From IMG/VR virus record IMGVR_UViG_3300005099_000473, positions 1 through 57,952 of that record: DNA of 57,952 nt. The stretch is one strand, 5' to 3'. Position 1 is the stretch's first letter, and each line of letters begins with the position of its first letter. This DNA is from a virus (Duplodnaviria > Caudoviricetes). The position numbers and the translations under genes were made by a program. The notes beneath the pieces were generated by a model. The model saw only the letters and a list, made by a program, of their open reading frames with translations, was not told the origin of the DNA and did no database searches. Shown in pieces: positions 1,207 through 28,478 of the stretch.

Positions 1207-2172
1207 ATGGCGTTTACATGGTCAAGTTTGAATAAGGGTAATGTTCCCAAGAAGGCTGATATTGATGAGATTAAGAGTAAGATAAATCAGATATTGGATA
1301 GTCTTGATAAGGGTTTGTCAATGCCATATAGTGAATTTGCTCAGAGAGGAGGAATGTATGAGTATGATAAGTTTGTTGCATTGAGACAAGTTATTGATGA
1401 TTTGGATGCTATAAAATGTAATGATTGTGATAGTTATAATGCGTATGAGAAGAGTGCTGCTTGTCCATTAGCGAAAATGGGATATTGTTCAGCAGATTAT
1501 GAAGTTGCATTAGCTGTCGATAATGTAGGTGAAGATACGACATATAATGAGGCTTATAATGATAATGAATTGTCTGCAAATAATGATACAGTAGACGGAG
1601 TAGTTTATTCAGGTGAAAAATCAGGTTTTTATGATGCACATAATGGTATGGATGATGCTTCTGAGAATTATTCAGCAAATAATGGAGAAGACAATTCAGT
1701 ATATAGTGCGGATGGTGCTTGTAGTAGTGACGACGTAGGTGTTCATAGTGGATATAATAGTAGTGTTGATAGTGGGCATGATATTTCATATTGTAATACT
1801 GTTTATGATAGTCAGAATTCAACATATTATACTGGTGAAAAATCTGCTGATAATTCTGGTGTTGATGCCAATCATAATGTAACGTACTATGCTGGTGATG
1901 ATAATGGATATGATTCGAGTGTGAATTCAGGTAATTTGTTTGGTGATTATGATAGTCATTTTAATAATCAGTATTCTGTAGATGGTAGTTGTTCAGGTGA
2001 TAATAGTGGATATGATAGTACATATAGGTATGGTTATGATTCGACTTATTATAGTAGTGAAGATAAGCCACATGATAGTGGTGTGAATGATACGAATAGG
2101 TCTGGATATGATGGAACGTATGATAGTGGTGTTGATGGGACATATAATAGTGGAGTAAATTCGAGTAATTGA
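1207..2172 (+). CDS. Repeat protein A: fibre-like N-terminal anchor plus D/N/S/G/Y-rich tetrapeptide repeats; putative radical SAM substrate
   Basis: ATG at 1207 follows AGGTGG. N-terminus FTWSSLNKG...KADIDEIK is paralogous to the next ORF. About 220 aa with 4/8-residue periodicity (e.g. GYDSTYRY GYDSTYYS; GYDGTYDS GVDGTYNS) and scattered Cys. Confidence 0.75.
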   Translation: MAFTWSSLNKGNVPKKADIDEIKSKINQILDSLDKGLSMPYSEFAQRGGMYEYDKFVALRQVIDDLDAIKCNDCDSYNAYEKSAACPLAKMGYCSADYEVALAVDNVGEDTTYNEAYNDNELSANNDTVDGVVYSGEKSGFYDAHNGMDDASENYSANNGEDNSVYSADGACSSDDVGVHSGYNSSVDSGHDISYCNTVYDSQNSTYYTGEKSADNSGVDANHNVTYYAGDDNGYDSSVNSGNLFGDYDSHFNNQYSVDGSCSGDNSGYDSTYRYGYDSTYYSSEDKPHDSGVNDTNRSGYDGTYDSGVDGTYNSGVNSSN

Positions 2173-2184
2173 GGTGGTCTGTAT

Positions 2185-2946
2185 ATGGGATTTACTTGGA
2201 GTACATTAAGGAGGGGTGATTTGATACAGAAGGCACATGTTGATGAGATGCGAGATAATGTAGATAGTATAGATAATACTAAGTGTACGGCTGATTATGC
2301 AACTTATAATAAATATGAACATTCGTTTGCGTATGGAGATTATTATTTGGATGATTTAAGTTCAGCACAGGCATCGTATTGTTTGTCATACAATTCTAGT
2401 GTTGATTCTAATGATAATGTAACGCATTATTCTGGTGATGATGGGGGATACAATAGTGATGTTTATTCAAGCGAATATACTGTGGTGGATAGTACAGAAA
2501 AAGTTTCGAATTTGCTTGGTCATGATAGCGCTATATATGGTACGAATGATGATGGTGATTATTCACAGGTATATGGTGCTGAAGACTCTGGGTTTAATTC
2601 ACAGAATTATGCTTTTGACAAGGAAGATAATGTATCGTATTATAGTGATGTTGATAGTTCAGATAATGAAACGTATTATGGTAGTGAGAATGTAAATGTG
2701 GATAGTGGGGCTAATGCTACATACTGCGGTGCGGATTATGGAGTATATTATAGCGGTGTAGATAAAAATGACCATGGAACTTATTATAATAATGAACATG
2801 GAACTTATAAATCTGGATATGATAGTTCAGTATATAGTGGTGAGGATGGAGTTTATTATAATGATGAACATAATGTGTACAATTATAATGAGCATAATAC
2901 GTATGAGAGTGGGCATGATAGTGGGGTATATAGTATATTTGCATAA
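2185..2946 (+). CDS. Repeat protein B: paralog of repeat protein A
   Basis: FTWSTLRRGDLIQKAHVDEMRDNVDSIDNTKC, then periodic repeats (NDHGTYYN NEHGTYKS GYDSSVYS GEDGVYYN DEHNVYNY NEHNTYES GHDSGVYS). RBS GAGGTGG upstream. Confidence 0.75.
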   Translation: MGFTWSTLRRGDLIQKAHVDEMRDNVDSIDNTKCTADYATYNKYEHSFAYGDYYLDDLSSAQASYCLSYNSSVDSNDNVTHYSGDDGGYNSDVYSSEYTVVDSTEKVSNLLGHDSAIYGTNDDGDYSQVYGAEDSGFNSQNYAFDKEDNVSYYSDVDSSDNETYYGSENVNVDSGANATYCGADYGVYYSGVDKNDHGTYYNNEHGTYKSGYDSSVYSGEDGVYYNDEHNVYNYNEHNTYESGHDSGVYSIFA

Positions 2947-2963
2947 TATGGGAGGTGTTAAGT

Positions 2964-4311
2964 ATGAAAAGTATGTTAGTTGCGAGTGAGGTTTTGACAT
3001 CTGGATGGTGTCCACTTCAATGTAGTTATTGTTATATTCCAAAAACGAAGGAAATGAAGGATTTGCATTTGGAGATTATTAAAGAGTTAAAGACAAGGAA
3101 TAGGATTGAAAGAATGAAAGAAATGAAAAAGAAATATGGAGTTAGGCTTGAACATTTGGGAGCTTGGGGAACTGAACCTTTATTGACAATGAGATATATT
3201 GATTTAAGGGAATGGAAAAAAGAATTTCCAGAGCTAAAGACGTTTGCATATTCAACAAGTATGATGTTAAAGCCTGTCCCAGTAATTGATGAAAAAGTTA
3301 AAGAGGCAAAGGATTTAAGAATATCAATAAAGAATCAGGTTAGTTTAGACGGCCCGAAGTGGATTACTGATAAAAATAGGGTTGGTGGTAGCACGGATGG
3401 GATTATTAAGAATACGAAGTGGTTAGTTGAGGAGTTGAATAAAATTGATTTTGATACATATTTTGAGATTAGTTTCAAGGCAACATGGAGTATAGACAAT
3501 ATTAGGCAAATGGTTGAACATCCAGAACTGATACATGAAGTGTTTGAGTTTTTTAGTAATTTAGTTAATGAATTGAGAAAGAAGAATAAAAAGAAGAATG
3601 TTGTGATAAGGGATTTTGCAGGCGGAACGTTAGTAGTGCCTGGCAAATATACAAGTGAAGACGGTAAGGTTTTGGCTAAGTTTTTTGAATATTTGTATAA
3701 GTTTGGGTATCCGAATAATTATACGTATAGATTGATGAGAATATTGGACTGGGGAAAGGAGTTGCATAAAGTAAGAATGTTCACATGTTCTGCAATGGAC
3801 AGTCAGTTTGGATTTGATGATGAAGGATGAAGGTGCAGTTCATATGTGTCATAGAACGTATTACTTCAATAAAGAGAAGTATATTAAGTCAGTAATGAGT
3901 ATGGATAAGTATAAGAATTGGGATGTTTCAGTAATGGAAGAGGGTAGGATGAGAGAAATCAATAAGTATTATATTGTTCCGTATGATGATGAGTTTGAAA
4001 TGTGGAGACTGTATTATGTAATGCGTGGATACCATGATTTTTGGAGATTTAGGGTTGGATATACTGTGAATATGATGAGGATGTTAGCATTGGCTGGTCA
4101 AGCAGAGGAAAGATTTTTGAAGAATAAAGATTATACAGTATTGTTTGCATATTTTATTAATTCAGCGTTCAGTTGTCCAATGGAGAATTTATTGAATACT
4201 GGTTGTGTACATTTGACACCAGTAAGTATATTGAGATATTTAGGCAATGGTGCTTTTGAGTGGATAGTAAGGGATGCATATAGGATATATAAGAGGAATG
4301 GGGTGTTGTAA
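2964..4311 (+). pseudogene. Radical SAM enzyme 1 (SPASM/twitch type), split into two ORFs (2955-3830, 3808-4311) by a 7-bp tandem duplication
   Basis: CPLQCSYC (CX3CX2C) and WGTEP. Removing one GATGAAG copy at 3819-3832 joins the frames into a 446-aa protein reading FTCSAMDSQFGFDDEGAVHMCHRT, which aligns with GCSVQAMLYVRLSDLAIVPCHRT of the downstream paralog. Confidence 0.85.
3819..3832 (+). repeat. Perfect 7-bp tandem duplication (GATGAAG)2 causing the frameshift
   Basis: Read directly: ...gatttgat GATGAAG GATGAAG gtgcagtt... Confidence 0.9.
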
Positions 4312-5631
4312 ATGATAACGTTTCAGGAAGAGAATGATAAGTTTATGGAGATGTTTATTGAAAAGACGTTTATTGAAGGATATAAGAGAAGGTTTCCGAA
4401 CTGGGATAGATTGGAGTTAATGTTAGATACAAGTTGTACGTTAGGATGTAGATATTGTTATTACAATAATCCAAAACATGATAAGTATCTGTATCCAGTA
4501 AGGTTAAAGAGACCTGAGGAGTATGTTAAGAATGCTAAAATGTTATTTGAGTGGTTGTATTATGAGAAAGGTGTAGTGCCAAGAGGTATTGATATATTTG
4601 GGGGAGAAGTTACTGTAAAGCCAGAGTTTTATGGAATATTGGATGCTATTGATGACGTGTTTGGAAAAGATGCAGAAAGAATATCAGTTGTTGTTCCAAG
4701 TAATTATTCGTTTTTGTTAAGTGAATATTGGACTAATAAAATGGAAGAATACTTAAAGAAAAGTAAAGTTAGACTTGCTCTGAGTGCGAGTATAGATGGT
4801 AAGTATTTGGAGACTATGAATAGGCCGTTAATTGATAATCCAGAGAAAGACCCAAGGAATGATGAATGGTATGATAGATTATTTGAATTCAATAAGAAGT
4901 ATGGATTTGGATTTCACCCAATGATATATGCGAGTGGTATTGAGTTATGGAAGAAGAATTTCTTATGGTTTCAGTCAATGTTTGATAAGCATAAGATACC
5001 ATGGTGGAGTATATATTTGTTAGAAGTAAGAAATCCAGAATGGACAAAGGAACAGATAAGAATATTTGGAGATTTTGTTGAGTTTTTAGTAAAGTGGACA
5101 TTTAAGAATAGATTGAAAGAAGATGTGCGTAGGTATGTTCATTTTACGTTTAAGTTAAGGGGATATAATATATTGAATCCGTTTAGTGGTGTTGGTAGAG
5201 GTTTGGGCTGTAGTGTTCAGGCAATGTTATATGTTAGATTGTCTGATTTGGCAATAGTGCCTTGTCATAGAACAAGTTATGATGAGTTCGTATATGGTTA
5301 TTTCAAAACTGAGAATGATAAAATAATAGGGGTGAAAGCTAAGAATATAGAATTGTTGAATGCAGTATATAGTTTTGTGGCAGAAAACCAGCCATATTGT
5401 GAATATTGTCCAATTAAGGAAGTATGCAGTAAGGGATGTCTTGGAGCACAGTATGAATTTAATGGTGATTTGTTTACACCAATACCAACTGTATGTGCAT
5501 TAGAGCATGAGAAGATAAAAAGAATAATAAAGGCAACGAAAGATATTGGAGTATATGAATATATTGTTAATGAATTACATAGGGAAAGACAATTGGTTTG
5601 GAGAAGGATTGAGGAAGCTTTGGGGGTGTGA
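4312..5631 (+). CDS. Radical SAM enzyme 2 with a full SPASM domain (putative peptide/protein maturase)
   Basis: CTLGCRYC, FGGE and SIDG motifs; C-terminal GC...PCHR...CEYCPIKEVCSKGC...PTVC cysteine pattern. Confidence 0.9.
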   Translation: MITFQEENDKFMEMFIEKTFIEGYKRRFPNWDRLELMLDTSCTLGCRYCYYNNPKHDKYLYPVRLKRPEEYVKNAKMLFEWLYYEKGVVPRGIDIFGGEVTVKPEFYGILDAIDDVFGKDAERISVVVPSNYSFLLSEYWTNKMEEYLKKSKVRLALSASIDGKYLETMNRPLIDNPEKDPRNDEWYDRLFEFNKKYGFGFHPMIYASGIELWKKNFLWFQSMFDKHKIPWWSIYLLEVRNPEWTKEQIRIFGDFVEFLVKWTFKNRLKEDVRRYVHFTFKLRGYNILNPFSGVGRGLGCSVQAMLYVRLSDLAIVPCHRTSYDEFVYGYFKTENDKIIGVKAKNIELLNAVYSFVAENQPYCEYCPIKEVCSKGCLGAQYEFNGDLFTPIPTVCALEHEKIKRIIKATKDIGVYEYIVNELHRERQLVWRRIEEALGV

Positions 5632-5634
5632 TAT

Positions 5635-6183
5635 ATGGATAGGAATGAGTATTTGAAAATTAGAGGTATTGTATTAAAAATGTTAAATTCGCAAGATTTT
5701 AGAAGAGAGTTTGGTAAAGGTGAAAGGATTAAAGTTGCAGTAGATACAATGGTAAAGAGTTTAGATATAGTTGCTAAAGGCGGTAGGACTGGTGTTGGAC
5801 AGAATATGATGAGTAATGTAATGAATGGAACGAAGGTAGTAATGGAGTTTGTAATATATCATAGACTTGGAAAGTTTACAACAAGTTTTGCATTGGCTTA
5901 TGCAGACTTATTAACAGTCTTCAATAAAGAGCTTGCATACAATTTTGATTTTGATATAATGGCAGATGCTATTAGAGCAATAGTTCGAAGTCATTTAACA
6001 ATAATGGAAGCAATTGATGTAATGAGGAATTTATTGGATAGAGCAGAAAGGTATATGAAGTTAGAACCGCCTGCTTATGGTGTTAGTAGGCATTTTACTG
6101 AAATGGTTTGGAAGAAGCTTGAGAAAGGTGAAGAAGTAGGTGATTATCCAAATAAGGCTGTGGAGGTTAAGAAGAAAGAATGA
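5635..6183 (+). CDS. Hypothetical helical protein closely linked to the radical SAM pair
   Basis: 182-aa ORF starting 3 bp after radical SAM 2, with RBS GGGGGTG; no recognisable motif. Confidence 0.6.
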   Translation: MDRNEYLKIRGIVLKMLNSQDFRREFGKGERIKVAVDTMVKSLDIVAKGGRTGVGQNMMSNVMNGTKVVMEFVIYHRLGKFTTSFALAYADLLTVFNKELAYNFDFDIMADAIRAIVRSHLTIMEAIDVMRNLLDRAERYMKLEPPAYGVSRHFTEMVWKKLEKGEEVGDYPNKAVEVKKKE

Positions 6184-6888: not shown

Positions 6889-7203
6889 ATGATATTGTTA
6901 TATGATGGTAAAGATGTTATCATTTACATACCAAAGGGTAAAAATAAGTTGTATATATGGAAGGAGAAGTCAAATCAAAGAAAAGGTGATACTGTTAAGT
7001 CAGATAAAATAGTATTTTGTATTAAGGGTTCAGATGTAGAGGCAAGAATAAAATTGGAAATTGAGGATGTGTTTTATATTACTGAAGTGTTAAGACATGA
7101 AGCTCTGAGAAGTTATGATGAAATGAGAGAGTTAAGTTTATTGTTAAAGCAAAAATTTTTAGAGAAGGAAAAAGCGAATGATGATGATAGGTCATACTTA
7201 TAG
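6889..7203 (+). CDS. Hypothetical protein
   Basis: ORF 6862-7203; likely start after GAGGTG; a TATA-like AAACAAAAATATTAAA lies upstream at about 6842. Confidence 0.55.
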   Translation: MILLYDGKDVIIYIPKGKNKLYIWKEKSNQRKGDTVKSDKIVFCIKGSDVEARIKLEIEDVFYITEVLRHEALRSYDEMRELSLLLKQKFLEKEKANDDDRSYL

Positions 7204-7217
7204 TGGGGGTGAAGAAT

Positions 7218-9044
7218 ATGGGAGTTTTGGATTACTTTAAGAAGTCAAATAATGTTGGTTCAGACTCATTGAATAAGTTATTTTTAAGGCCAGTCGATGA
7301 GGGTTATGTTAAGACTGGAATTTTGGATGTAACAAGAATACCGTTTGTGCCGTTGGGTTTTAAGTATGTGGAGAATTTGTATTATAATAGTGATGTTTTG
7401 AGGACAGTTGTTAGAAGTTTAGTTTGGGAGACGTTTAGGAATGGAATTTATATTGAAGAAGCATTTCAGTTTAAATGTGTAAGGTGTAAGACTACTTTTG
7501 ATGAACCAGTTGAAGTCTGTCCAGTTTGTGGTTCTGCAGAGTTAAGACCGCCTAATAAGATGCAGAGGAAATTTTTAGAGCAATTATTGGAAAGAGCAAA
7601 TTTGAATGGGCAGTCATTTTTGGAAGTTTTACAGGATATTGATTTTGATTTGAACATTTTTGATAATGCGTATGTTATAGTAAGGAAAGAATATAAGTAT
7701 AATGAGGATGGTAGAATAATTGGAGCAACACCAATTGAAGTGGTTAAGGGTAGTGTTCATAATATTAGATTGGTTTTAAGTAATGATGGTAGGTTAGGTA
7801 TTAGTCCAGATGGAACGCATATGGTTTTTGTATGTCCAGAGCACAGGGAAAATGCAGAATTGATTCCAGTCGGTCAAGTTGACCCAAATAACCCACCTAA
7901 ATGTAAGAAATGTGGCAGAGAAATGATAGTTGCTCATGCAGAATATAGGAAGTCAAGTAAGAAAGTATATTTAGGTGCAGGTGAAGTATTACATGTAAAG
8001 AAATTTACGCATGGAATTGGTTATGGATATCCAATGCCTCTGACTCTGGCAATGAAGTTGTTGATTTTAATGAAAATGGACTATTATGTGTTAATGGCAT
8101 ATCATGTTCAAAGACCACCAAAGGGAATATTGATTTTAAGAGCAAATAGGGATGCAGTTGCTAAGGCTTGGCAAACTATTGAAGAAGCAAGTAGGGTTAA
8201 TCCATGGAGGATAATACCGTTAGTAATTGAAGGAACTGAAAGGTTAGGTGCTAAAAGGGTTGCAGAATGGATTGATATGTCGTTTAGAATGGATGAGACT
8301 GCAATGATGAGTTATAGAGATGAATTGAGAAGAAGTGTAGGTTCTGCTTATGGTGTCAGTCCGATATTTCAAGGTGATGTGTCAGTCGGTGCAGGTTTGG
8401 CTAATGAAGGTTTGCAGATTACAGTTACGAATAGGGCAGTTGAAAGGGAACAGTCAATATTTAATGAGAAGATTATTCCATGGATAGTTAAGCAATATGG
8501 TGTGACTGATTATGAAATTAAATTAAAGCCACATGAAGAGAAAGATATGACTGCCCAGTTACAGAGGGTGCAGATGAGAATACAAATTGCACAACAGTTA
8601 ATGCAAATGGGATATAAGGTTAAGTTAAAAGAAGGTGCTGATGGTATTGAGTTTGATGTTGAAGAAATGGATGTTAATGCCGAGTTAATGTTCATATTAA
8701 CACAGTGGTTGAAGCAAAATAATATTGAAATGAAGCCAGAGGAAGTTGTTCAGTTAGTGCAATTGGCTCAACAAGCTGGTGGTGTTCAGGCATTAATGCA
8801 AATGATACAGTCTCAGCAAGGAATGGTTGGTGGAATGCCAGTCCCAGCTGGTCAAGAAACTGGTAATGAATTAAGTCAAATGTTACAGGAAGTTTTTAGT
8901 GAAGGACAAGAAAGTCCATTACCAGAAGAAAAAAGAGAAAGTGTTGAAGAGAAAGAGCAAAGATTTGAAGGCGAACCTGCACATAGTAAGCCAAGGAAAA
9001 ACGAACAAAGGTTTGAAGGAGAACCAACTGGGGTGCGACGTTAG
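7218..9044 (+). CDS. Portal protein with zinc-ribbon insertions
   Basis: Portal-like motifs D.DLNIFDNAY, GYG.P and AYGVSPIF; inserts CVRC...CPVC and CPEH...CKKC; heads the capsid module. ATG at 7218 follows GGGGGTGA. Confidence 0.8.
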   Translation: MGVLDYFKKSNNVGSDSLNKLFLRPVDEGYVKTGILDVTRIPFVPLGFKYVENLYYNSDVLRTVVRSLVWETFRNGIYIEEAFQFKCVRCKTTFDEPVEVCPVCGSAELRPPNKMQRKFLEQLLERANLNGQSFLEVLQDIDFDLNIFDNAYVIVRKEYKYNEDGRIIGATPIEVVKGSVHNIRLVLSNDGRLGISPDGTHMVFVCPEHRENAELIPVGQVDPNNPPKCKKCGREMIVAHAEYRKSSKKVYLGAGEVLHVKKFTHGIGYGYPMPLTLAMKLLILMKMDYYVLMAYHVQRPPKGILILRANRDAVAKAWQTIEEASRVNPWRIIPLVIEGTERLGAKRVAEWIDMSFRMDETAMMSYRDELRRSVGSAYGVSPIFQGDVSVGAGLANEGLQITVTNRAVEREQSIFNEKIIPWIVKQYGVTDYEIKLKPHEEKDMTAQLQRVQMRIQIAQQLMQMGYKVKLKEGADGIEFDVEEMDVNAELMFILTQWLKQNNIEMKPEEVVQLVQLAQQAGGVQALMQMIQSQQGMVGGMPVPAGQETGNELSQMLQEVFSEGQESPLPEEKRESVEEKEQRFEGEPAHSKPRKNEQRFEGEPTGVRR

Positions 9045-23583: not shown

Positions 23584-24765
23584 ATGGGGAAGGATAAAGA
23601 AATAAATGTAAGGGAATTGTATTTATTGCCATATCATGGTATGGTAAGTGCGGTAGTTCAGGGTAGTCAAGGTCTGTATATGACAGTGTATGATTATTGG
23701 CATGATGAAGGATATTGTGATTGTATTGGATTTAGGGTATATAAGAGATGTAAACATTTAAAATGGTTAAAATCAGAAGTTGATAGGAGGTGGAATGATT
23801 TGGCGATTTCAATAGGGGAGACTGAAAGTGTGTTTAGAGAGTTTCCAAGTAGTTTAGAATGTTTGAATGAAATGTTCGGTGGCAGTCCGTATAGTTCTGG
23901 TGAGTTATTTGCAATTTACAGTCCGCCGAATCGTGGTAAGACGTTATTTTCTGTTCAGGAGACAGTATACTTGATAAGTCAAGGATATAAAGTGTTGTAT
24001 GTTGAAACTGAGGGTTCAGGCGAAAAAATGATTAGAAAATGGGCTCCGATTTTTGCTAAGCGGTTTGGAGCTAATTTGAAAGACTTGTATTTTGAAAGTA
24101 GAAGAACGTTAGAGACATTGGCTCAGTATCTTGGTTTTGAAGTTAAGTTTGTTACAAAGCAAGTTAGTGAGGAAGAATTACAGCCAGAGGCATTAGTGAA
24201 GGAAGGTAAGAAAAAGAAGAAAAAGAAAAAAGAGAAAGGGGCTAAAATAGAAGTCATATATAGGCCGTTGGATTTATCGTTAATTGAACAAGATATTCAG
24301 AAATATAAGATTGACTTTATAATTTTGGACAGTTTAAGTAATCCGATAAGAAGTGCATTTCCGCCTGACCAGCAAAATAATCCAGCTAAGAGTTTTATTG
24401 AGGGTAGAATTTTACAGAAGTTAATTGAACTGCAAGAGAAGTATAGAGTTGGAGTGTTGATTGTTTTGCATGCAAGTTTTAATCCAGCTAATCCGTATGA
24501 AACTCAGATTGGATTTAGAGGTGGTTTGTCAGTTGCACATAATGTTAAGAGAGTAGTATATATTGCTCAAAGGGGAGGTGCTGATTGGATTGCATATAGA
24601 AAGTTTTGGTTAATAAGAAGTGAAGATGCAGTACCATGGAGTAAATATGCAGTTGCTAAGATTAATGAAATGGGATTTATTGATGTTCCTAAAGAAGAAT
24701 GGCAGAATGTCTTGACAGATTCAGAATTAAAGAGATTAAAGAAGTTACAGGAGGAGCAAGAATGA
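23584..24765 (+). CDS. RadA/RadB-like RecA-fold ATPase with an N-terminal SWIM zinc finger
   Basis: CDC......CKH (SWIM); Walker A SPPNRGKT; YVETEG; Walker B IILDS. Confidence 0.8.
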   Translation: MGKDKEINVRELYLLPYHGMVSAVVQGSQGLYMTVYDYWHDEGYCDCIGFRVYKRCKHLKWLKSEVDRRWNDLAISIGETESVFREFPSSLECLNEMFGGSPYSSGELFAIYSPPNRGKTLFSVQETVYLISQGYKVLYVETEGSGEKMIRKWAPIFAKRFGANLKDLYFESRRTLETLAQYLGFEVKFVTKQVSEEELQPEALVKEGKKKKKKKKEKGAKIEVIYRPLDLSLIEQDIQKYKIDFIILDSLSNPIRSAFPPDQQNNPAKSFIEGRILQKLIELQEKYRVGVLIVLHASFNPANPYETQIGFRGGLSVAHNVKRVVYIAQRGGADWIAYRKFWLIRSEDAVPWSKYAVAKINEMGFIDVPKEEWQNVLTDSELKRLKKLQEEQE

Positions 24766-25847
24766 TATTAGAAGATGAGATAGATATATGGTTAAGAGCA
24801 AATACGTTAGGTAGAATATTTCCAAGGGAAGTTAATTTAAGGAGGTATGTTGTTAAGGATGAAGTAGAGTTTTATGATTATTTGTTTACGAATAAGTGGA
24901 CTGATGTATATGCTAATGTATTTGCACAGTGGCAGAAGTCATATAGTAAGTTTGATACAGTTTTTGTAGATATTGATATTCATGAAGGAAATGAATATTG
25001 GAGCCAGATAGAGGAAAGTTATGAAGAAATGCAGAAAGTTAGAGATGTTCTGGAGAAAGAAGGATTGGCTGGTAGATGGTATTTTACAGGCAGATGTTTT
25101 CATGTTTATATTGATTTTCCAGTAACGCATTTGGAGTATTATTCAGATATTATTAGATATCAATGGGCAGTGGATGTTTTCAGAAATATTGATAGTATTG
25201 ATACAAGGGTAGTTGGTGATAAGAATAGAATGGCTCGAATTGTTGGAAGTATTCATGGTAAGACTAAGTTACATATGATTAGGATTGAACCTGAATGGGA
25301 GTTAGATAAGATAGTGATAAATAGTATGGATAAAAAGTTTGAGGCAGAAGTTCAGAATTGGATTGTTAATAATACATGGTTTGCCGAGTTTTTAAAGGAA
25401 ATGGATAAGGAGTATATTGAGAGGGTGCAACAATCAAATGAATATGTGGTAAGTGATGAAAGACAGAAGTTAGTATATGAATTTGTTAAGGAACATTCGA
25501 ATAGTTTTGATTTGTTACCGCCCTGTATTAAGAAAGGAATTGATTTGATTCTGGAGACTGGAGAATTGTTTCATGAGTGGAGGTTTCATTTAGCAACGTA
25601 TTTATTGAGGGTTTGGGATAAGGCAAGTGTTGAACAGTTGTTTAGTTTGGCAAACGATTATAATCCAAGTCTGACTGAGTATCAGTTAAATTACATTTTG
25701 AAAAGGGGTATGTATCCGTATAGTTGTAAGAAAGCCAAATTGTATGGAATATGTCAGTTTGATGACCAAAGGAAATGTCCGTTTCATGAATTACTATGGG
25801 GATGGATTGGCGGGATTTTTAAGGACATTGAGAAAGGAGGTGTTTAA
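24762..25847 (+). CDS. Archaeo-eukaryotic primase, PriS catalytic domain fused to a PriL-like C-terminal Fe-S domain
   Basis: FVDID, FTGRCFHVY and RMARIVGS; C-terminal LPPCI...H..RF...YSC.....GIC....CP. Confidence 0.8.
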   Translation: MILEDEIDIWLRANTLGRIFPREVNLRRYVVKDEVEFYDYLFTNKWTDVYANVFAQWQKSYSKFDTVFVDIDIHEGNEYWSQIEESYEEMQKVRDVLEKEGLAGRWYFTGRCFHVYIDFPVTHLEYYSDIIRYQWAVDVFRNIDSIDTRVVGDKNRMARIVGSIHGKTKLHMIRIEPEWELDKIVINSMDKKFEAEVQNWIVNNTWFAEFLKEMDKEYIERVQQSNEYVVSDERQKLVYEFVKEHSNSFDLLPPCIKKGIDLILETGELFHEWRFHLATYLLRVWDKASVEQLFSLANDYNPSLTEYQLNYILKRGMYPYSCKKAKLYGICQFDDQRKCPFHELLWGWIGGIFKDIEKGGV

Positions 25848-28478
25848 ATGTCATATTCAGTTCAGGGAATAGTTCGTTATGATTTTGATAATGTAGGTCA
25901 GTTAATTTTGAAAGGAATAATAAATGGAAGATTACAAACTGTTCTGTCGCCTGCATATCCTTATGCGTTTGTTGAACGAAAATCGGGGGTTGTAAATGTT
26001 CTGTCAAGTATAGAAGAAGTTATTAATTGGGAAGAAGTAGATTTGAAAGCTTCTGATACTGGAATGGAGGTAATTAAGTTTTTTACGAAAAGCCCGAAGC
26101 ATATACCAGTAGTAAGAGAGAAGTTAAATGATGCTGGATATAAGACGTATGAGTCTGATATTCCGTTTATTAGAAGATTATTGCATGATAAGAAGTTAAT
26201 AATTGATTATGATAGGTCAAATATTGCATATCTGGATATTGAGGTTGATGATAGTAAAAGTTTTCCGTCTGAGTATGGTAAGTATGAGATTGTTTCAGTT
26301 GCAGTTTATGATGGAAATGGAAATGGAGAGTGGTTTTTTATAGACAATTATAATGACGAAGTGGAAATGTTAGGTGATATGGTTGCATACTTAATGGAAA
26401 AGGAAATGACAGTTATTGTTGGTTGGAATGTTCAGTTTGACTATAACCATTTGTTAGAAAGGTTAAGAATGAAAAAGATGTTTTGGGAATTGGAATGGTT
26501 AAGGCATTGTAACGTTATTGATTTAATGCACGAGTATATGTTTGCTGTTAAGGGTTTAAGTAGTTATAGTTTGGAAGAGGTTAGTCGGCATGAGGGTTGG
26601 AAAATCAAACATAAGAGTAAGGCAATTCATGAAATGAGAAAAATGCCAAAAGAACTTGAAGAGTATAATATGTATGATTCTGAATTATTGTATATGATTG
26701 ATAAGAAGTATGGTTTTACAGATGTTAAGTTTGAGATTGCTCGACAGACAAATTTGACGCTTGACATATTGACACAGTCAAGAATAGGTGATGCACTTAT
26801 AATATGGAGACTTAGAGAATTAGGTTATGTTGCGATTGATAAGGTGAAGAAACAAAAGGAAAAGTATAAAGGGGCATTTGTTATTGAACCAGAGCCAGGA
26901 TTGTATAAGTATGTTGGATATTATGATGTTAATAGTCTGTATCCGAATGTAATAATTCATAAGAATATTGACATTGATGGCTTTAATGGTGAAGTAATGC
27001 CATACATTGAAAGGCAGTTGTTAGAGGACAGGGCAAAGTATAAAAAGTTGTATAAAGAGACTAAAAATCCAAAGTATAATGTTATGCAAAATGCAAAGAA
27101 AATATTGGCTAATGGTTTGTATGGTTTGTTTGGTTCGCCCAGTTTCAGATATTATAATAGAGAAAAGGCAGAGGCAATAACGACTGGGGGAAGAGAAGTA
27201 CTAATGAGAATGAAAACATTTATAGAGAATGATTTGGCTTTAAAAGTGTTGTATGGCGATAGTGTAACAAAGGATACAAGAGTTAGATATTATACGTTGT
27301 CAGGAAATGAACGAGTAGAGGCAATTGAAGACTTGTGGAATAGATATAGTAAGTATGCTAAAGTTAGACCAGATGGGAAAGAAGAAATATATCTAAAAAA
27401 TATGCATTTATTGACTTATGCAGTTAGTGATGATTTGAAGGTTGGTTTAAAAGAGATTGTTCGTGTGGTTAGGCATAAAGTAAAGAAAAAAATATATGAG
27501 ATTATTACAGAATCAGGGAAGTCAGTTAAAGTTACAGAAGACCATTCAGTTATGGTTTTGTCAAATGATGGCCAAAGATTAGTAATTAAAAGACCAAAAG
27601 ATTTGAGTATAAATGTAGATATGTTGTTAGTTAAAAGTAATAACGGAAGGGGTAGTAGTTCGTTTGAACGTGTCGTCAAAGTCAAAGAGGTTACAGACTA
27701 CATTGGATATGTTTATGACTTAGAAGTTGAAGAATATCATACGTTTTTTGCAAATGATATTTTAGTGCATAATACTGACTCTATGTTCTGTCATTTAGGT
27801 ATTGCTTTTGATAATGAAATTGAGCCTGATATTGATGCCGTGGTTCAGTTTGCAGAATTCGTTAAGGATGAAATAAATAAGGAGATTGCACCGTTTCAGG
27901 TAAAGCTTGAATGTGTCTTAACAGGAATGCTGTTTTTGAAAGGAGGTGATAGGGGTGGAGCAAAGAAAAGATATGTAGGTTTAAAGACAACTGGTGAATA
28001 TATTGTAAGAGGTTTGGAAGTAAGACGGTCTGATTGGTCTGAGCTTAGTAAAGAAGTTTTATGGAAAGTTATTGATTTGATTTTGAAGGAGGGTAAAACA
28101 AAGAAGGATGTAATGAAATATTTAGGTGAAGTTAAGAGGAAGTTATATAGTGGAGAATATAATGATAAGATTGTTATGGCAAAGTCGTTAAGTAAAAGAA
28201 TTTCAGAATATAGTAATGCTCCGCCTCATGTAAGGGCGTATGTTAAGGCAAAGGAAAAAGGGTATGATTTTGCAGGTCAGAAAGTTACGTTTGTCTGGGT
28301 AAAAGGAGGTGATGTTGAGCCAGTCTATCCAGGAGTTGATTTAAGTAAGATTCCAGTAGATTATGATGCGATTTGGGAAAAACAGATAATGGCGCCAGTA
28401 AAAAGAATCTTGGATAGTATTGGGGCAGGTAGAAATATGAAGTTAGATGTTTTCTTTAAGATGAATAAAAAATCTTAA
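25848..28478 (+). CDS. polB: Family B DNA polymerase with a mini-intein
   Basis: ExoI DIE, ExoII GWN..FD, ExoIII YNMYD; DVNSLYP; KILANGLYG; YGD/TDS split by the intein; KKRY; C-terminal PIP-like NMKLDVFF. Confidence 0.95.
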   Translation: MSYSVQGIVRYDFDNVGQLILKGIINGRLQTVLSPAYPYAFVERKSGVVNVLSSIEEVINWEEVDLKASDTGMEVIKFFTKSPKHIPVVREKLNDAGYKTYESDIPFIRRLLHDKKLIIDYDRSNIAYLDIEVDDSKSFPSEYGKYEIVSVAVYDGNGNGEWFFIDNYNDEVEMLGDMVAYLMEKEMTVIVGWNVQFDYNHLLERLRMKKMFWELEWLRHCNVIDLMHEYMFAVKGLSSYSLEEVSRHEGWKIKHKSKAIHEMRKMPKELEEYNMYDSELLYMIDKKYGFTDVKFEIARQTNLTLDILTQSRIGDALIIWRLRELGYVAIDKVKKQKEKYKGAFVIEPEPGLYKYVGYYDVNSLYPNVIIHKNIDIDGFNGEVMPYIERQLLEDRAKYKKLYKETKNPKYNVMQNAKKILANGLYGLFGSPSFRYYNREKAEAITTGGREVLMRMKTFIENDLALKVLYGDSVTKDTRVRYYTLSGNERVEAIEDLWNRYSKYAKVRPDGKEEIYLKNMHLLTYAVSDDLKVGLKEIVRVVRHKVKKKIYEIITESGKSVKVTEDHSVMVLSNDGQRLVIKRPKDLSINVDMLLVKSNNGRGSSSFERVVKVKEVTDYIGYVYDLEVEEYHTFFANDILVHNTDSMFCHLGIAFDNEIEPDIDAVVQFAEFVKDEINKEIAPFQVKLECVLTGMLFLKGGDRGGAKKRYVGLKTTGEYIVRGLEVRRSDWSELSKEVLWKVIDLILKEGKTKKDVMKYLGEVKRKLYSGEYNDKIVMAKSLSKRISEYSNAPPHVRAYVKAKEKGYDFAGQKVTFVWVKGGDVEPVYPGVDLSKIPVDYDAIWEKQIMAPVKRILDSIGAGRNMKLDVFFKMNKKS
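27261..27773 (+). mobile_element. 171-aa mini-intein in PolB motif C (YGD|TDS)
   Basis: Starts with Ser (SVTKDT); block B VTEDHS; block F VYDLEV; ends HN followed by Thr; no LAGLIDADG motif. Confidence 0.92.

Follow-up and report, generated by a model that had tools for sequence, protein, structure and literature searches.

The 57,952-nucleotide IMG/VR record IMGVR_UViG_3300005099_000473, analysed over its full length and here called the window, carries between positions 1207 and 6183 a compact set of genes for two repeat proteins (rep1 and rep2), two radical S-adenosylmethionine (SAM) enzymes (rSAM1 and rSAM2) and a small partner protein. Almost all long open reading frames (ORFs) of the record lie on the plus strand, and the intergenic gaps from rep1 through rep2, rSAM1 and rSAM2 to the partner gene are 12, 8, 0 and 3 bp, in keeping with a first-pass annotation that had put the gaps among these genes below 20 bp. 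Pfam and NCBIfam contain no dedicated model for any of the four families represented here, those of the repeat proteins, rSAM1, rSAM2 and the partner. The features are collected in Table 1. The lectin-type fibre gene upstream, whose product also gives weak PHROG matches to tail-fibre and virion proteins, is context and lies outside the conserved cassette.

Table 1. Coordinates of the cassette genes and of other features discussed in the window
Feature	Position	Strand	Remarks
Repeat protein A (rep1), 323 aa	1207-2172	+	ORF call opens at TTG 1201; MAFTWS from ATG 1207
Repeat protein B (rep2), 253 aa	2185-2946	+	Single N-domain up to Cys34, then ~188 aa of tetrad/octad repeats
rSAM1 N-terminal fragment, 291 aa	2955-3830	+	Radical-SAM core with CX3CX2C and first conserved C-terminal Cys
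Tandem duplication GATGAAG-GATGAAG in rSAM1	3819-3832	+	Copies at 3819-3825 and 3826-3832
rSAM1 C-terminal fragment, 167-aa ORF	3808-4311	+	+1 frame; other two conserved Cys (CHR and CP.EN motifs)
rSAM2, 439 aa	4312-5631	+	Radical SAM with canonical 7-Cys SPASM and conserved 35-aa N-terminal helix region
Partner protein (182 aa)	5635-6183	+	All-helical; conserved NWN and PPAFELSKHYL motifs
Lectin-type (ConA/LamG-like) fibre, 341 aa	169-1194	+	Pfam 3keto-disac_hyd 1.4e-7 and Laminin_G_3 8e-7, both above cut-off
Lectin_C_term/Agglutinin_C-like protein, 161 aa	6354-6839	+	Pfam PF18022 2.4e-7, 31.6 bits (cut-off 27.1)
PriL-like primase subunit	24699-25847		Adjoins family B DNA polymerase
Family B DNA polymerase with intein	25848-28478		Pfam Intein_splicing, residues 528-642, 2.5e-16

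The two repeat proteins share an N-terminal segment, as the first-pass annotation had seen, and relatives extend this likeness to a family consensus, MAFxWxxxIxxGxxIxxxxIxEIRxNxDxIxDNxxC. A hidden Markov model (HMM) of this segment, the N-domain, matches rep1 at residues 5-38 (E 9e-11) and rep2 at residues 3-38 (E 6e-15). In rep1, which is 58% identical to its orthologue in the related locus L001, the N-domain is followed by a Cys-bearing linker and ~218 aa of acidic tetrad/octad repeats. Autocorrelation of each repeat region was compared with 2000 shuffles, both by residue class and by residue identity. By residue class the maxima fall at lags 4, 8, 12 and 16 (rep1, z=7.1, 4.7 and 5.5 at lags 4, 8 and 12; rep2, z=2.3, 5.4 and 4.3), and there is a marked deficit at lags 2, 6 and 10 (z -3.9 to -6.9). 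The analysis by identity has its maximum at lag 8, with z=5.7 in rep1 and 4.0 in rep2, values reached by 0 of 2000 shuffles. The tetrapeptide periodicity reported earlier is real and above chance, but it is not "near-strict", the register slipping often; the repeats are better described as octads, each made of two tetrads.

Tail composition was analysed in 70 distinct repeat proteins from the loci described below. The tetrad that emerges is [V/Y/...]-[D/N]-[S/A/T]-[T/G/S], which we read as Ω-[D/N]-[S/T/A]-[G/S/T], where Ω is mostly Y, V or H. When Asp is not used as the anchor, Ser/Thr and Gly are the most regular positions (enriched 2.0-2.6-fold at lag 4, 0.12-0.30 at lag 2) and aromatic residues are enriched 1.6-2.0-fold at lag 4, and these enrichments together point to an Ω-x-S triad. 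Triads such as YDS, YNS and HDS are frequent in the tails. The tails are strongly acidic, with 23% D+N and 3.7% K+R, and His makes up 4.6% of their residues. They vary in length from about 20 to more than 300 aa, and whole proteins reach 500 aa (L007 and L020). A Cys lies within residues 26-110 in 64 of the 70 proteins, in the contexts printed mostly at the junction of N-domain and repeats, and at +3 or +4 from this Cys a D or N is present in 37 of the 64, as it is in 88 of 141 database proteins with a Cys in the same range; within the tails the median is two Cys per protein. AlphaFold2 gave residues 1-38 of rep2 a predicted local distance difference test (pLDDT) score of 88-96, as an extended segment and a helix at 16-38, and for the unmodified repeats it predicted no fold (pLDDT about 40).

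The N-domain profile found 1089 cluster representatives at E<=1e-3 among 1.84 billion proteins, and among the best 150 N-domain proteins, 138 have tails made up of at least 50% D/N/S/T/G/Y/H. The domain thus appears nearly specific to tails of this composition. The few exceptions among these 150 carry the N-domain motif in tandem beside LamG or thrombospondin-type (TSP1) domains and are adhesin-like. In L023 (4989-6194), and also in L025, a ConA-like lectin domain (Laminin_G_3, 3e-16) interrupts repeat protein A between two copies of the N-domain, after which comes the tetrad tail. Because of the rich tails, the tandem copies beside LamG or TSP1 domains and this lectin insertion, the N-domain would fit a structural, surface-exposed role better than that of a disposable leader. 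Neither a signal peptide nor a membrane anchor is present in the viral repeat proteins. Two further ideas were dropped: an N-domain shared with the lectin fibre of the window (E 0.26; 0.01 for the L001 fibre), and a beta-helix tail, taken up after a 17-bit match of one relative, P0138, to Gp5_trimer_C of T4 (E 0.0058), a model that matched 0 of 27 repeat proteins.

Sequence places both enzymes in the radical SAM superfamily (PF04055). In an alignment of 25 rSAM2 sequences, 44-88% identical to the window protein, C42, C46 and C49 are invariant, as are seven SPASM cysteines, C300, C318, C363, C366, C372, C376 and C395, the core spacing of which, C363-X2-C366-X5-C372-X3-C376, fits the SPASM motif C..GX4C..CX2CX5CX3C..C. 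The protein scores 27.8 bits on the SPASM model TIGR04085 (cut-off 27) and 21.2 bits on PF04055, below the Pfam cut-off; PF04055 is precomputed for many of its homologues, of which the database holds 652 at E<=1e-3. rSAM1 matches PF04055 with 34.5 bits (2.9e-8; cut-off 29.5), and its CX3CX2C motif (C16/C20/C23) is invariant in 29 aligned sequences. Farther towards the C terminus C274 and C292 are invariant and C401 is kept in at least 90% of the same sequences. The seven-Cys motif is absent from rSAM1, TIGR04085 does not match it, and its match to the "twitch domain-containing" model NF033640 is weak (26 bits; cut-off 170); the three auxiliary cysteines would fit a reduced, twitch-like auxiliary-cluster domain. 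Thus, where the first-pass annotation had named two SPASM-type genes, the designation holds for rSAM2 but not for rSAM1. The two enzymes are distant paralogues of one another (hhalign probability 98%, 18% identity).

In the window rSAM1 is not the single intact gene that it had been taken for. A 7-nt tandem duplication of GATGAAG splits it, shifting the frame by +1 and creating a TGA stop at 3828-3830. In L001, a relative 88% identical, rSAM1 is one intact 445-aa gene with GFDDEGAVHLCHRT in a single frame, and the N-terminal and the C-terminal fragments of the window are each 89% identical to it. In contigs of relatives (80-97% identity) from the sequencing runs X1, X2, X3 and X5, four of four, the seven nucleotides are absent at full depth. 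Reads of the window itself were not found among the runs, at most 0.18 of sampled words being present in any one. The duplication is therefore private to the window and may be a real mutation or an assembly error; unless it is the latter, the cassette may be defective in this genome.

For both enzymes the best NCBIfam model is that of PapB (NF047865), with 45.1 bits for rSAM2 and 37.8 bits for the intact L001 rSAM1 (cut-off 340). The further NCBIfam matches, to CefB, YhhB, GrrM/OscB, SCIFF, QhpD and anSME, are all to peptide or protein maturases and lie far under their cut-offs; models of cyclophane-forming enzymes (XyeB, GrrM/OscB, FxsB, YhhB and AmcB) gave at best 11.8-27.9 bits against cut-offs of 310-450. 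Profile searches of the PDB returned 5wgg, 8vpo and 9gm3 for rSAM2, the first listed only as "Radical SAM domain protein" and presumably the thioether-forming SCIFF maturase CteB. The best match of rSAM1 was 9gm3, "ChlB radical SAM domain" (1.8e-11), over the radical-SAM core only (positions 12-163), and the matches of the enzymes also included 4k37 (anSME) and 6efn (SkfB). The nearest named families and structures are thus peptide or protein maturases and not the cofactor- or nucleotide-modifying clades that the first-pass annotation had named as a refuting outcome; beyond generic core matches neither enzyme resembles the nucleotide- or cofactor-modifying radical-SAM families, viperin models giving at most 21 bits. 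The same searches, in NCBIfam and among PDB profiles, gave no epimerase-family match, and the comparison with PoyD drawn earlier is not borne out. Since all family scores of rSAM1 and rSAM2 lie far below the curated cut-offs, no known chemistry can be transferred to them. Radical-SAM genes of Campylobacter phages (24% identity) were considered as the same cassette and rejected, the neighbours in CP220 having no N-domain or partner match, and a collection of 50,697 phage records held no homologue closer than 24% identity.

The partner protein is modelled by AlphaFold2 as seven helices (pLDDT 92). A fold search of this model against the PDB gave no usable match (best E 0.36), and no family was found for the protein in Pfam, NCBIfam, PHROG or PADLOC, a single 17-bit NCBIfam match being due to chance. 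Matches to TPR/BTAD-like structures (template modelling score ~0.5) came from a poor Atlas model (pLDDT 0.56), were all below threshold and were discarded. A complex prediction of rSAM2, the partner and residues 1-80 of rep2 scored 0.00 and gives no verdict either way. The family occurs in 47 of 49 viral loci, and four loci (L013, L015, L017 and L024) have two partner genes, one after each enzyme, which supports the accessory role suggested for the 182-aa ORF.

These loci were obtained by scanning IMG/VR with the rSAM2 homologue alignment alone, which yielded 49; ORFs were then called in each and searched with BLAST and with two HMMs, for the N-domain and for the partner (the latter iterated), built from the loci themselves. 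As their own rSAM2 genes demand, L027, L032 and L042 were translated with TGA as Trp and L047 with TAG read through. rSAM1 is present in 47 of the 49 viral loci, L022 (with 600 bp of upstream sequence) and L041 being without it, and the 182-aa family is missing only from L008 (227 bp of downstream sequence) and L049. N-domain repeat proteins, usually paired, occur in 39 loci, and when period-4 D/N/S/T/G/Y/H-rich proteins are counted as well, the number of loci with either type inside 5 kb rises to 45. The four others are L027 and L046 (less than 30 bp upstream), L036 and L041, the last of which encodes a divergent MAFTW... repeat protein below the thresholds used. In most loci the enzymes are preceded by the repeat genes; L013, L015, L017 and L024 have these genes between the two enzymes, and L026, L028, L030, L031 and L071 have them on the downstream side. 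The in-frame TGA codons of L027, L032 and L042 align mostly with Trp of rSAM2, and L047 has six in-frame TAG codons. The linkage of the cassette thus survives gene rearrangement and stop-codon recoding. The gene-neighbourhood search proposed by the first-pass annotation accordingly came out positive, the radical-SAM pair, the 182-aa family and the repeat ORFs keeping company in 45-47 of the 49 viral loci, and co-occurrence that outlasts changed gene order and recoding suggests that pair and repeat ORFs work as a single functional unit.

Scanning 185,579 species genomes added 24 loci, all from metagenome-assembled genomes (MAGs). Most belong either to DPANN archaea, with Iainarchaeum the closest (56% identity), then Woesearchaeota, Nanohalarchaeota and Nanoarchaeia, or to bacteria of the candidate phyla radiation (CPR), namely Parcubacteria, Paceibacterota, Colwellbacteria and Saccharibacteria. 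The habitats of these relatives are vents, but also the groundwater and lakes that supplied CPR and DPANN bins. Three MAG loci are contigs already among the viral loci (L055=L003, L058=L006, L064=L016), and L068 and L074, lacking a full rSAM2 ORF, were dropped. An N-domain pair is present in 14 of the other 22 MAG loci, and six of the eight without one have less than 500 bp of upstream sequence.

Two contigs, both from Saccharibacteria, tie the enzymes to a studied system. In L061 (3183-9846) and L072 (2862-9780) the trio rSAM1-rSAM2-partner lies directly 3' of HXS genes, and N-domain proteins are absent. HXS (His-Xaa-Ser; TIGR03976-03979) is an anti-phage system and a proven case of repeat-protein maturation by radical-SAM enzymes with a small partner (Li et al., Nat Commun 2026, PMC13128918). 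As described there for E. coli, the radical-SAM enzymes HxsB and HxsC together with HxsD mature the repeat protein HxsA by N-terminal processing and a +8 Da change on an SHRSS motif; HxsD is bound by HxsC, and entry of phage DNA is blocked by the product (PMC13128918). The order in L061 is HxsD, HxsB, a membrane protein, an HxsA3-like repeat protein, rSAM1, rSAM2 and the partner; in L072 a TPR protein follows HxsB, and HxsD lies on the same contig farther out. The scores in L061 and L072 are 64 and 62 bits for HxsD (cut-off 50) and 514 and 500 bits for HxsB (cut-off 370). The HxsA3-like protein beside the L061 trio, which is signal-anchored, scores 55.6 bits (cut-off 65), and that of L072 has a D/S/Y/G-rich tail resembling the viral ones. 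No HxsC (TIGR03977, cut-off 267.9) scored above cut-off in either genome, with a model that also matches all 14 control genomes below cut-off. The canonical order being HxsD-HxsB-HxsC-HxsA (PMC13128918), the trio occupies the place of HxsC in both contigs. Elsewhere on the L061 contig are five further radical-SAM genes with 89-108 bits on the HxsC model.

The window proteins themselves fall short on the HxsB, HxsC and HxsD models. On HxsB (TIGR03978, cut-off 370) the rSAM1 fragment reaches 19.5 bits and rSAM2 24.8 bits; neither enzyme matches HxsC at E<=0.1; on HxsD (TIGR03976, cut-off 50) the window partner has no match and the L061 partner none at E<=0.001. For HxsA the picture is mixed, in that the window repeat proteins, with their Ω-[D/N]-S-x tetrads, match no HxsA model, while the HxsA3-like protein of L072 shares the tail composition of the viral ones. 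The cassette is therefore filed as an HXS-like variant and not as a member. Like HXS, it combines a protein-sized putative repeat substrate having a periodic x-Ser motif with two radical-SAM enzymes and a small partner. By contrast, the viral substrates would carry the N-domain in place of a signal sequence or peptidoglycan-binding part, and their repeats are acidic, with Y, V or H first, and run to tens of tetrads, whereas those of HXS are basic His repeats, five in number. The hosts differ as well: the cassette occurs in archaeal-, DPANN- and CPR-type tailed viruses, whereas canonical HXS is reported to be 99.7% Pseudomonadota (PMC13128918).

Other maturation systems offer partial parallels. 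PapB joins the Cys of repeated CX3D motifs to the Asp Cβ, and the PapB/freyrasin model (NF047865), which covers rSAM2 nearly end to end, finds an echo in the junction Cys with D or N at +3 or +4; the median of two Cys per tail means, however, that a thioether cannot be the repeated modification. PoyD-type epimerases are radical-SAM enzymes that iterate along one polypeptide, but nothing in the cassette points to epimerisation over crosslinking. Triceptides are three-residue cyclophane peptides made by radical-SAM/SPASM enzymes that form such cyclophanes (3-CyFEs) on Ω1-X2-X3 motifs (ChlB on YDR, HaaB on HAA, HtkB on HTK), and ChlB is described as crosslinking Tyr to Cβ on its native YDR motif (PMC11499958). 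The viral tails have comparable repeated aromatic-x-x triads, YDS, YNS and HDS, and the best PDB match of rSAM1 is named ChlB; from the name alone we take 9gm3 to be the ChlB of PMC11499958. Unlike triceptide precursors, the viral proteins have 100-500 aa and many tetrads without an aromatic residue, and they are accompanied by two enzymes and a partner in place of one maturase. The poly-cyclopropylglycine system TvgA/TvgB resembles the cassette in that an enzyme of the radical-SAM/SPASM family acts repeatedly on a tetrapeptide repeat, TVGG (PMC9062424); as described in that source, it is set apart by the motif, by a single enzyme with an oxidase and transporters, and by a small bacterial peptide as product (PMC9062424).

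On balance we consider it probable that positions 1207-6183 hold a conserved virus-borne five-gene protein-maturation cassette, in which the enzymes and the partner modify the repeat proteins and the products are likely displayed on the tail. The cassette is most likely a viral HXS-like maturation system acting on Ω-[D/N]-[S/T]-x tetrads. The relation to the substrate, the chemistry and the location on the virion are what we infer from the observed gene content, conserved linkage, enzyme family affinities and HXS hybrid loci, the canonical SPASM domain of rSAM2 and the hybrid loci together pointing to a protein substrate as far as sequence can. In the mechanism that we propose, the partner would dock on an enzyme, as HxsD does on HxsC, and help to present the substrate. 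The enzymes would then abstract hydrogen atoms repeatedly along the tail, modifying each or every second tetrad. The likeliest chemistry would be a triceptide-like side-chain crosslink over the Ω-x-S triad, from the aromatic ring to Cβ. Since aromatic residues are missing from many tetrads and the cassette supplies two enzymes, Asp/Asn or Ser probably undergoes another reaction, in addition or instead, and a PapB-like thioether may join the junction Cys to an Asp or Asn close by. The most likely site of the matured product would be the virion tail, where it would serve as a fibre or adhesin. In favour of a tail location are slender indications only, namely the lectin fibre directly upstream in the window, PHROG matches to tape-measure, tail or tail-fibre proteins flanking L001, L004, L013 and L048, and the lectin domain in the L023 substrate. 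In a more specific form, which we put forward tentatively, the product would be a tail-borne fibre or adhesin of viruses of DPANN, CPR and other uncultured hosts, its acidic shaft stitched residue by residue by the radical-SAM pair and a chaperone-like partner.

Several points weigh against this interpretation. The chemistry is wholly a reading of sequence, and the best family score of either enzyme is 45 bits where 340 would be required. The Ω position is often V, A, D or E, and in L022 and L024 the tails are almost without aromatic residues, so that the modification cannot everywhere be an aromatic cyclophane. Of 10 large upstream proteins only 2 have a tail annotation, and the upstream matches of L048 and L001 are weak; the portal, which we had considered as a fixed neighbour, comes after the cassette in no locus but the window and L001, and most flanking proteins are unannotated. 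The end of the tail module is moreover a classic site of accessory, non-structural genes. HXS, the closest studied relative, is presented in its description as defence and not as a structural system (PMC13128918). The HMMs were trained on the same loci and the N-domain seeds were picked by a motif-plus-composition filter, so that the counts lean towards their own definitions. Finally, in this genome rSAM1 is frameshifted.

The kinship with HXS leads directly to a non-structural alternative, in which the cassette would be a virus-carried, HXS-like conflict system that acts in the infected cell or its envelope, by superinfection exclusion or by countering a host function. The same trio does stand inside genuine HxsD/HxsB/HxsA3-like loci in the two Saccharibacteria contigs, and the variable flanks, with a portal in 2 loci and flank families in at most 26, would suit a mobile accessory module, as would the place at the end of the tail module, where accessory genes are usual. 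HXS is itself anti-phage, and 77% of E. coli hxsA-D operons are reported to lie outside predicted prophages, the remainder overlapping them (PMC13128918). We nevertheless regard this alternative as unlikely. The absence of a signal peptide or membrane anchor distinguishes the viral repeat proteins from the HxsA3-like proteins of L061 and L072, and since the viral repeats are strongly acidic, the electrostatic DNA binding proposed for the basic HxS repeats cannot apply to them. HxsB was found in only 2 of 73 loci, L061 and L072; the lectin domain of the L023 repeat protein and the tandem N-domains of adhesin-like LamG/TSP1 proteins fit such a system poorly. PADLOC-DB 2.0, a library that presumably predates the HXS paper, gave no system match, only generic pVip radical-SAM matches of 20.6 and 15.6 bits.

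If instead the repeat proteins were classical RiPPs, peptides made on the ribosome and modified after translation, the N-domain would be a leader that is cleaved, and the tail would be released whole or as small crosslinked peptides serving as toxin, metal binder or signal. A leader followed by a repetitive core is the layout of multi-core precursors such as TvgA, whose TVGG repeats are described as being modified by TvgB (PMC9062424), and the wide variation in tail length would suit such a role. So would the Lectin_C_term/Agglutinin_C-like protein, which we take to have a papain-like fold, but its homologues occur in 6 loci only, 3' of the cassette in the window, in L001 and in L006/L058 (one and the same contig) and nearby in L009 and L019, and clustering of the flanking families revealed no protease or exporter family conserved with the cassette. 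Proteins of up to 500 aa, and an N-domain that is also tandem and internal in large extracellular-type proteins, as a structural domain would be, make this explanation quite improbable. We give least credence, and very little, to repeat proteins that remain unmodified as disordered or trimer-folded fibres next to a radical-SAM pair whose target would be DNA, nucleotides, a cofactor or a different protein of the virion: DNA hypermodification is known to involve radical-SAM enzymes of phages, the extreme base bias of the window (7.7% C) could hint at unusual DNA chemistry and the P0138 tail weakly matches the T4 gp5 beta-helix, but that model finds none of the 27 repeat proteins, the enzymes have no nucleotide- or cofactor-family likeness beyond the generic core, the canonical SPASM domain and the hybrid loci would indicate a protein substrate, and in 45 of 49 viral loci the enzymes have kept their repeat-protein neighbours through rearrangement and code change.

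As far as the literature was searched, in article texts, no paper on a viral cassette of radical-SAM enzymes with repeat proteins was found. The kind is known, that of repeat proteins matured by radical-SAM enzymes; the setting is new, and the four families have no models. Known targets of radical-SAM/SPASM maturases are small bacterial peptides and, as of 2026, the HXS defence effector. In the present case the same scheme would be a widely spread, standard cassette of uncultured tailed viruses (652 rSAM2 homologues, 1089 N-domain clusters), enriched in DPANN and CPR bins and present in viruses with TGA as Trp or a recoded TAG, and its putative substrates are 100-500-aa proteins among tail genes. 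If the repeats are modified, they would be a new class of post-translationally crosslinked viral protein, with a new enzyme family and possibly new chemistry on Asp/Asn-Ser tetrads. If the tail-fibre interpretation is correct, this would be, within the literature searched, the first virion structural protein matured by RiPP-type radical chemistry and the first sign of an enzymatic toolkit common to the HXS defence family and a viral structural module. The cassette would then connect, in evolutionary terms, a phage-defence system with a viral module.

By its gene content the window appears to derive from an archaeal-type tailed virus. The nearest relatives of its portal (7203-9044) are portals of haloarchaeal tailed viruses and of a Methanomassiliicoccales virus, and it also encodes a major head protein (PHROG) and a prohead protease, besides the PriL-like primase subunit and the intein-bearing family B polymerase of Table 1, which belong to the same archaeal-type profile. 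The tail genes expected upstream of position 1 lie outside the window. The rSAM2 protein of the window is found on a record of 80,782 bases as well, so that a longer assembly may exist of which the 57,952-base record is one part.

Three families recur in the flanks of more than six loci, namely proteins of ~313 aa (26 loci), a glycosyltransferase (16) and proteins of ~398 aa (11). The first, counted by BLAST clustering, is an unannotated family of ~313-365 aa with N-terminal CxxC pairs; it stands just 5' of repeat protein A in L004 (4729-5814), L005 and L006 and has no Pfam match and only chance PHROG matches. The second, of the GT-B type (Glycos_transf_1) and likewise counted by BLAST clustering, adjoins the cassette in L003 (9275-10213), L007 (9897-10883) and L044 (5365-6324), and the Ser/Thr-rich tails might also be glycosylated. 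The base composition of the window is extremely strand-biased: the plus strand has 7.7% C and 26.7% G, the GC skew is ~0.36-0.68 across all 2-kb bins, and C occupies the third position in 13 of 440 rSAM2 codons. The GC skew is 0.40 in L001 and has a median of 0.12 in the other loci.

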